From a virus (lineage: Duplodnaviria; Heunggongvirae; Uroviricota; Caudoviricetes): a stretch of 23,040 nt of DNA. Below are positions 18,046 to 18,645 of this stretch, in pieces. The position numbers and the translations under genes are program-made. The stretch lies in the IMG/VR virus record IMGVR_UViG_2671181056_000005, positions 1 to 23,040 of that record; one strand, written 5' to 3'. A model generated the notes under the pieces. It made no database searches and was not told where the DNA came from. It was given only the letters and a program-made list of their open reading frames with translations. Position 1 is the stretch's first letter. Each line of letters begins with the position of its first letter.

Positions 18046-18171
18046 TTAATTCTTAGCCTTGCGGCTTCGTTTTGCTGTGGCTTTCGCCGTAACTTCTTCT
18101 ACTTCTGGAATCACTACAGCTTCATGTTCTGGCAGTGGTTCCGGTTCTGGTAAAGGAAGTTCTTCGTTAGT
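18046..18171 (-). other. 42-codon in-frame open extension after the TGA stop of the major tail protein gene
   Basis: Hand translation TNEELPLPEPEPLPEHEAVVIPEVEEVTAKATAKRSRKAKN then TAA at 18046-18048, ending just before the terminator. Confidence 0.35.
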
Positions 18172-18645
18172 TCATCCAGCGGTAAACACTTCCTGTTTCA
18201 GCGGAGCACCATCAACGGCAAAGGTAAACTCTTTAGTTACCACTTCTTCATCGCCACCGTTCATAGCAACTTTAGAAATAAAGCCGTTGTAAGCGATACG
18301 AATACCAGTCTGTTTGCCAGCGTCCACATAATATTCTACTTTGATTTGGCAGCGAGTTCCGTCTTCGGCAGCTTTTGCGAGCTTCTCGTGTACCGCATCA
18401 CCTGGGATGTAGTTAACGGTCAGAGTCAGATCTTCAACGTTCAGTTTACCAACCAGCTTACGGTTATACTGAGAAGAATAGCTCTTAACTTCTACCGTCC
18501 CGCGAGACAGTGAATATTCAGGAAAACCAGCACACTCTTTAATTTCTTCGTATGCTTCATCGGCAAGGTCGGTGTTAGTGGTATCGGCGTGATAGAACAG
18601 ACTTACCAGACCACCAGTAAAAATATCTTTGAATTGTTGAGTCAT
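18172..18645 (-). CDS. Major tail tube protein, lambda gpV N-domain-like, 157 aa
   Basis: Segment LTLTVNYIPGD...RCQIKVEYYVDAGKQTGIRIAYNGFISKV resembles recalled lambda gpV N-domain; GGGG RBS; followed by a terminator. Confidence 0.6.
   Translation of the reverse strand: MTQQFKDIFTGGLVSLFYHADTTNTDLADEAYEEIKECAGFPEYSLSRGTVEVKSYSSQYNRKLVGKLNVEDLTLTVNYIPGDAVHEKLAKAAEDGTRCQIKVEYYVDAGKQTGIRIAYNGFISKVAMNGGDEEVVTKEFTFAVDGAPLKQEVFTAG

Follow-up and report, generated by a model that had tools for sequence, protein, structure and literature searches.

The stretch of DNA analysed here, which we call the window, comprises the 23,040 nucleotides at positions 1 to 23,040 of the IMG/VR virus record IMGVR_UViG_2671181056_000005 (Caudoviricetes). 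On its minus strand, which also carries all the features named in this paragraph, it encodes a tail tube protein (major tail protein) whose stop codon is followed by a long open stretch in the same frame. The open reading frame (ORF) of the tube gene lies at 18175..18645 and contains 157 codons, the product of standard termination; a likely Shine-Dalgarno sequence, AAGGGG (18653..18658), was recognized on reading the sequence 7 nt upstream of the ATG. The gene ends in a TGA at 18172..18174, the putative leaky stop and proposed site of readthrough, and the codon right after it, ACT (18169..18171), supplies the A at position +4 and gives UGA-ACU, a context that is invariant in the clade described below. 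After the TGA the frame reads TNEELPLPEPEPLPEHEAVVIPEVEEVTAKATAKRSRKAKN, 41 sense codons from 18171 to 18049. Codons 1-27 of this extension (18091..18171) translate into an acidic linker rich in Glu and Pro (TNEELPLPEPEPLPEHEAVVIPEVEEV; nine Glu and six Pro), and codons 28-41 (18049..18090) into a basic tip rich in Lys and Arg (TAKATAKRSRKAKN; four Lys and two Arg). A second stop, the TAA at 18046..18048, is regarded as efficient and would end a predicted readthrough product of 199 amino acids. Four nucleotides past it begins an intrinsic terminator (18007..18041), made up of a hairpin at 18041..18017 with ten pairs, six of them G-C, and a T-run. With Trp at position 158, the predicted junction would be EVFTAG-W-TNEELPLPEPEPLPEHEAVVIPEVEEVTAK. 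The sense frames +1 and +2 close within a few codons after the region of the tube gene stop.

The original prediction for this locus, that the frame stays open for 42 codons after the TGA, corresponds to these 41 sense codons plus the TAA; its placing of the TAA directly ahead of the terminator hairpin and its division of the extension into a Pro/Glu-rich and a Lys/Arg-rich part agree with the spacing and the residue counts given above. The probability of 13% that it attached to such an open stretch, (61/64)^42, is fair for one sequence. It had also cautioned that the open frame alone is not decisive, and rightly so: four of the 22 genes in the window have at least 41 open in-frame codons past their own stop, two of them due to a next gene in the same frame, and a single sequence is therefore not decisive. 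The usual stop in the window is TAA, which ends 20 of the 22 genes.

The 157-residue protein is a tail tube protein of the lambda type. It matches phrog_158 (‘major tail protein’) with E = 1.2e-20 and, weakly, PF16460 (23.7 bits, below the cutoff of 28.4) and PF16461 (22.6 bits, below the cutoff of 26.1). The core of its AlphaFold2 model, with predicted local distance difference test (pLDDT) values of 80-90, was matched by Foldseek to the tube domain of lambda gpV (7t2e, 7t4f and 8k36; E from 2e-6 to 4e-6), the identity to these structures being only 13-17%. The same core also resembles the tubes of phages 80alpha and SPP1 as well as Hcp, that is, the tail-tube or Hcp-like beta-sandwich fold. 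The position of the gene, upstream of those for the G/T chaperones and the tape measure protein, fits a tail tube protein of a lambda-like siphovirus. The extension looks different: residues 159-198 were modelled with pLDDT values of at most 52 and without secondary structure, and no Pfam domain was found in it. The Prokaryotic Genome Annotation Pipeline (PGAP) calls the relatives ‘phage tail tube protein’ of 157-158 residues, ending at the TGA in every case. Among distant relatives, dozens (proteins P0031-P0144) carry a tube-like domain (residues ~2-140) at the N-terminus of proteins of 750-1500 residues, and the C-terminal parts of these proteins are fibre-like (Peptidase_S74, Phage_tail_C_2). 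In them the tube-fold domain appears to have been reused as an anchor of tail fibres. Because distant relatives often bear such long C-terminal additions, the C-terminus of the tube domain evidently tolerates decoration.

Homologous loci were gathered with the tube protein, not the extension, as seed, from complete Escherichia coli genomes, metagenome contigs, contigs encoding database homologues and IMG/VR. Fifty-five loci make up the extension clade, in which the tube protein is 79-99% identical to that of the window; among them the gene occurs in 47 different sequence versions and the extension in 25. In all 55, the TGA is followed by ACT, and the frame stays open. The extension is 33, 36, 39, 40 or 41 codons long and each time stops just upstream of the terminator, with a TAA in 51 loci and a TGA in four, placed 4-10 nt ahead of the terminator stem. 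The last sense codon before the first TGA varies (GGA, GGT, GGC, GCT or TCT). The acidic-then-basic layout is kept in all 25 extension variants, including the divergent TFEEQPQPI type, and each of them has the basic cluster KR(S/G)RK. Past the terminator, the clade is variable: the next gene encodes a gp38 adhesin, a tail assembly chaperone or a 422-residue protein. Since the downstream gene changes and the extension stays, the extension belongs to the tube gene. By contrast, the 34 homologues at a greater distance (45-70% identity), found in E. coli, Salmonella, Edwardsiella and phage DCP80, all lack an extension: their tube genes close with TAA, in many cases TAATAA, immediately before the terminator. 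A stop context of the leaky type is thus conserved wherever there is an extension (TGA-ACT, 55/55) and replaced by TAA where there is none (34/34), and the homologues at or below 70% identity either never had the extension or lost it.

The alignment of related major tail genes, which had been proposed as a check, accordingly favours readthrough, the TGA and the extension being conserved in 55/55. Homologues that end at the same place and run on into unrelated sequence, which had been named as the outcome that would speak against it, do exist, at identities of 70% or less and not among the 55 loci of the clade. The same comparison disposes of the suggestion that the TGA arose by sequencing error or, in a decaying prophage, by a recent nonsense mutation, an explanation whose probability is now practically nil. 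Fifty-five independent assemblies, which span several continents and types of sample, have the same TGA, followed each time by the open extension, and the surrounding tail genes are intact. One apparent counterpart with a sense codon at this site, P0001 (198 residues, with W at the stop position), was rejected as a natural fusion: its DNA has the TGA, and it comes from a short ENA contig called under genetic code 4. P0001 is the only ‘fused’ tube protein in a collection of 5.8 billion proteins, in which no version of the tube gene lacking the TGA was found; code-4 calls can evidently masquerade as sense-codon variants.

Whether the extension is read as protein was assessed from substitutions, taking the minimum number of events in each codon column of the aligned extensions. 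For the whole extension, frame 0 shows 28.5 synonymous versus 38.5 nonsynonymous events (omega ~0.42, binomial P = 9e-4; P = 4e-4 in the initial 17 sequences), against omega values of 1.19 in frame +1 and 1.16 in frame +2. The two halves behave alike, with omega in frame 0 at 0.44 for codons 1-19 (P = 0.02; 1.2-1.45 in the other frames) and at 0.40 for codons 20-41. The body of the tube gene is more constrained (omega 0.21), and synonymous divergence (pS) within the clade amounts to 0.26 for the extension and 0.40 for the body. Every indel in the extension has a length divisible by three: internal ones of 3, 6 and 12 nt lie in the acidic part, and there are length changes at the 3' end. On the opposite strand, an ORF of 77 codons with a TTG start (18059..18292, + strand) spans the whole extension; its third positions fall on those of the sense frame, and it could thereby have mimicked the synonymous excess. 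It was rejected as a gene, being interrupted by stops in 48 of the 55 relatives, and in most relatives none of the three antisense frames is free of stops. Judged by these substitution patterns, the tube gene's own frame is the only one under protein-level constraint. After the TGA this frame has no start codon of its own; it does contain an in-frame GTG at codon 20.

That GTG could in principle start an independent small gene (18114..18112), with the 3' half of the extension encoding a basic peptide of 22 residues that needs no readthrough. The GTG-ATT pair (V-I) is kept in nearly all relatives, and the omega of 0.40 in this half is what one would expect of such a gene. However, no convincing Shine-Dalgarno sequence precedes the GTG, and the 19 codons between TGA and GTG give the same frame-0 signal as the rest; they also contain all the internal in-frame indels and have no stop in 55 loci, unlike an untranslated leader. 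We regard a separate gene as very unlikely. An ancient neutral relic is likewise unlikely, if less so. Here an ancestral protein would have carried the C-terminal tail, a TGA nonsense mutation would have been fixed in the ancestor of the clade, and the downstream codons, no longer translated, would not yet have decayed. The clade does appear to have a single origin, its members being at least 79% identical and the homologues at or below 70% having no extension, and PGAP ends every relative at the TGA. An Edwardsiella homologue has a constitutive tail of 20 residues (ending NVIPEAVAAKEK), whose similarity to the extension is marginal (shuffle P ~0.05-0.07); overall, the extension resembles the tails at the C-termini of the Edwardsiella and Salmonella homologues marginally or not at all. 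Yet the clade has diverged substantially, as the pS values show, and all 55 extensions are open, with their indels in frame. Decay predicts an omega of about 1, the value that the control frames come close to, and out-of-frame indels, whereas the synonymous excess is confined to frame 0 (P ~1e-3), and the 5.8 billion proteins contain no TGA-less version of the gene.

We therefore consider it probable that leaky readthrough of the UGA gives a minor isoform of the tube protein, with a predicted length of 199 residues. Of the three stop codons, UGA is the leakiest. Most ribosomes would terminate at this one (18174..18172) and release the 157-residue subunit. A small fraction would insert Trp, the near-cognate Trp-tRNA(CCA) outcompeting release factor 2 (RF2) at the weak UGA-A context, and would run on for 41 codons to the TAA before the terminator, yielding the long isoform. 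In E. coli K-12, readthrough of UGA in a generic reporter is ~2% at 37 °C and ~4% at 25 °C and reflects competition between Trp-tRNATrp and RF2 (PMC10570021), and UGAA is a tetranucleotide weakly bound by RF2 (PMC5373646). The 157-residue protein fits the gpV tube domain (~156 residues) in fold and length, and the extension should therefore point outward: it would begin where gpV passes from the tube domain to its external immunoglobulin (Ig)-like domain and project outside the tail. The appendage would consist of a disordered or extended acidic Glu/Pro spacer of ~27 residues and a basic Lys/Arg tip of ~14 residues. From the tape measure protein of 809 residues we estimate ~170-190 tube subunits per tail, compared with ~192 in lambda (PMC5009743), and readthrough of 1-5% would then place a few extended subunits in each virion. 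As for function, we would guess that the basic tip binds weakly and electrostatically to lipopolysaccharide or the cell surface, or that the extension has a role in tail assembly. The occurrence and efficiency of readthrough, the insertion of Trp, the external location and the function are all inferred.

Several points weigh against readthrough of this kind, or at least temper it. An omega of 0.42 indicates moderate constraint only. Several of the indels fall in a PEPEP repeat, where slippage by whole units stays in frame anyway, and just 2.6-4.3% of random substitutions in the extension would create a stop, which makes the absence of stops weak evidence alone. The invariance of the TGA and of the third base of ACT is not significant by itself, as ~35% of the tube gene's comparable synonymous sites do not vary either. 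All genes with an extension form one clade, so that it probably arose once, and the comparative evidence amounts to replication within one lineage. Natural E. coli carry an efficient RF2 variant (Ala246), and because of this readthrough in real hosts may be well below 1%. Finally, no conserved stimulatory RNA structure was found near the stop in an alifold consensus. That consensus contains small hairpins only, at least 45 nt downstream of the stop (-10 kcal/mol, covariation term -0.16), and the z score of -3.2 for the fold of the single sequence is due to the terminator and to a long-range stem that relatives lack through deletion. Readthrough stimulated by structure, through a pseudoknot of the murine leukaemia virus type or an extended 3' stem-loop, was rejected, no structure being conserved near the stop and the region just 3' of it carrying deletions in relatives. 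Of the original proposal of programmed UGA readthrough, then, readthrough is favoured by the comparative data, and ‘programmed’ holds only in the sense of a leaky type of stop, no stimulatory RNA element having been found.

RNA-level considerations also bear on an explanation in which the peptide is irrelevant. The spacing from main stop to terminator, together with the few ribosomes that read through, might serve as a cis-regulatory spacer that tunes transcription termination and with it the ratio of tube protein to gp38, chaperones and tape measure protein. The second stop lies 4-10 nt before the terminator stem, and a ribosome standing on it would cover the hairpin's 5' arm; in the relatives without an extension, each ribosome that finishes the tube gene halts beside the terminator. 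There are small hairpins within the extension, one of them with a compensatory double change (GGCGAAAGCC to GGAGAAATCC). Still, for such a spacer an open frame would suffice, yet omega is 0.42 and the acidic-then-basic design recurs in all 25 variants; the consensus structure is weak and shows almost no covariation. This alternative, which seems to us about as improbable as the relic, would in any case still need readthrough of the UGA and so rivals the proposed function rather than the mechanism. A small GNRA-type hairpin, GGC-GAAA-GCC, in the extension (~18072-18092, - strand) becomes GGA-GAAA-TCC in two relatives, a double change that keeps the pair and is nonsynonymous at both sites (A to E and A to S). 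The exchange could be a coincidence or a minor RNA element.

The UGA might, alternatively, encode selenocysteine or be decoded by a reassigned genetic code or a phage suppressor tRNA. Selenocysteine genes and code-4 and code-25 phages, too, are marked by a UGA within a frame that stays conserved downstream, and one metagenome pipeline called the tube gene under code 4. Against selenocysteine, searches at E values up to 10 gave no selenocysteine insertion sequence (SECIS) or other Rfam family, only sub-threshold chance matches driven by the terminator, and the place required for a bacterial SECIS, 12-40 nt past the UGA, has deletions of 6 and 12 nt in relatives and no conserved hairpin. The window has no tRNA gene, and the annotation of a complete relative prophage of 37 kb lists none, which speaks against a suppressor. 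A reassigned code is at odds with the other genes, which are intact under translation table 11, and with a further gene (6816..7169) that ends normally in TGA. We consider these decoding schemes extremely improbable, more so even than a separate small gene.

In the window the tail module runs in the order long-fibre gene, tube gene, gp38 adhesin gene, chaperones G and T, tape measure, distal tail protein and tip proteins. Just upstream of the tube gene lies a gp34/gp37-like long-fibre gene with a Peptidase_S74 chaperone domain (18702..21914, - strand). A T4-type gp38 adhesin gene (17491..17997, - strand; PF21721, phrog_1121) follows the tube gene and precedes the tail assembly chaperone in this lambda-like siphovirus module; the slot past the tube-gene terminator is a swap site, relatives having gp38, nothing or the 422-residue protein there. 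It is followed by chaperone G (17140..17448, - strand; phrog_344) and a T-like ORF (16760..17110, - strand) with a weak match to PF06223, and the 809-residue tape measure protein belongs to phrog_13674. The T-like ORF is in the -1 frame relative to G, the T frame being open from 17155 and overlapping the end of G, and a possible slip site, A_AAG, stands right before the TAA of G (GTA AAG TAA; 17110-17160, - strand). This arrangement fits the conserved G/GT frameshift. In several RefSeq genomes PGAP labels the 102-residue tail assembly chaperone (relatives of 17140-17448) ‘cytochrome’, which is probably a misannotation, as phrog_344 and PF16459 point to a tail assembly chaperone. Between the fibre and tube genes there is a perfect 7-bp G/C hairpin, CGGGGGA-ACTAG-TCCCCCG (18676-18694), with a terminator-like score on the plus strand and no T-run on the coding minus strand.

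A complete relative is present as a ~37-kb prophage in ycdX of E. coli PSJ-22 (NZ_AP027634.1, 1177-1215 kb), where ycdX is split into fragments beside ghrA and ycdY and a large serine recombinase is encoded. This prophage also has a gene for a 666-residue ‘major capsid protein’, which may be a fusion of protease/scaffold and capsid. A near-identity search of a phage collection yielded no close relative, and the matches among phage proteins (DCP80, Vibrio phages) reach at most 43% identity and have no extension. Two scans of contigs from species-representative genomes found nothing.

In the literature, we found no report of readthrough of UGA or another stop codon in a tail or major tail gene of a double-stranded DNA phage, within a search of incomplete coverage. 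If readthrough holds for the tube gene, this would, as far as we found, be the first tailed phage in which a structural gene makes functional use of it. Recoding at the 3' ends of phage capsid and tail genes is well known and works by frameshifting in the cases described; bacteria are considered to make functional use of stop-codon readthrough only rarely, the textbook phage case being the single-stranded RNA phage Qbeta. Confirmation would establish a new mode of recoding for structural genes of tailed phages and provide a natural, short, structure-independent cassette for bacterial readthrough. It would also imply that annotation pipelines systematically miss such isoforms, given that PGAP stops at the TGA and that the sole database ‘fusion’ is a code-4 artefact, and it would raise the question of what a few appendages with an acidic spacer and a basic tip do on a tail. 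Because the extent of UGA readthrough in E. coli varies with temperature, the RF2 allele and the levels of cyclic AMP and tRNA-Trp, the dose of decorated subunits could report the physiology of the producing cell and alter the adsorption or host range of the progeny.

The closest counterpart among known systems is the A1 protein of phage Qbeta. In both cases one frame would encode a major structural subunit and a minor, C-terminally extended isoform of the same assembly (predicted in the case of the tube protein), the stop is a UGA in an E. coli host, and the extension opens with a Pro-rich linker. The lack of RNA structure near the stop of the tube gene is what is expected of a leaky stop of the A1 type, as Qbeta A1 readthrough requires no dedicated RNA stimulator. 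A1 is experimentally proven and essential, while the extended tube isoform is predicted. The similarity extends to the stop itself: in the RefSeq entry of Qbeta (NC_001890) the coat gene ends UAC UGA ACU GCA, with the same UGA-ACU hexamer (1742-1747) as the tube gene, and the annotation gives this stop as leaky with ~5% readthrough. The differences are that Qbeta is a single-stranded RNA phage and extends a capsid protein, whereas the window belongs to a temperate double-stranded DNA prophage of the siphovirus type and the protein is a tail tube subunit, and that A1 adds ~196 residues that fold into a domain, compared with 33-41 residues predicted to be disordered. We propose tentatively, rating the chances slightly below even, that a lineage of temperate tailed double-stranded DNA coliphages uses UGA-ACU readthrough in the manner of Qbeta, so that a few tube subunits per virion display, at the surface of the tail, a rigid acidic Glu/Pro spacer that carries a basic tip.

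Among tailed phages, the long form of the tail tube protein of Bacillus phage SPP1, gp17.1*, arises by frameshifting. The Listeria phages A118, A500 and PSA resemble the tube gene in that a minority of tube subunits receive a C-terminal addition by recoding at the end of the tube gene. Their long major tail proteins arise by +1 frameshifting, which in PSA takes place at a Pro codon adjoining the stop; short and long forms are expected to assemble together, with the addition outside the tube (PMC5009743). The purpose of the tube extension would seem to be the same. In the Listeria phages and SPP1 the addition is read in the +1 frame and folds into an Ig-like/FN3 domain, whereas here it is in frame 0, short and predicted to be unstructured. 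A frameshift-extended tail protein of this type was rejected for the window: the extension is in frame 0, omega is ~1.2 in the +1 and +2 frames, there is no Ig/FN3 fold, and no slippery or Pro-stop motif was found at the end of the tube gene. Lambda gpV shares with the tube protein the fold and a tube domain of ~156 residues, and the extension starts at the point of the linker that leads to the external domain of gpV; the order of tube gene, G/T chaperones and tape measure is also the same. In gpV, by contrast, the addition is folded and present on every subunit, with no stop codon in between. Finally, UGA readthrough in nudL and pheL of E. coli likewise pits Trp-tRNA or another near-cognate tRNA against RF2 and produces an in-frame extension. 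The nudL and pheL products are regarded as by-products of the weak RF2 of K-12 and vanish with RF2-Ala246 (PMC5373646, PMC10570021), whereas the tube extension is conserved and under purifying selection across its clade.

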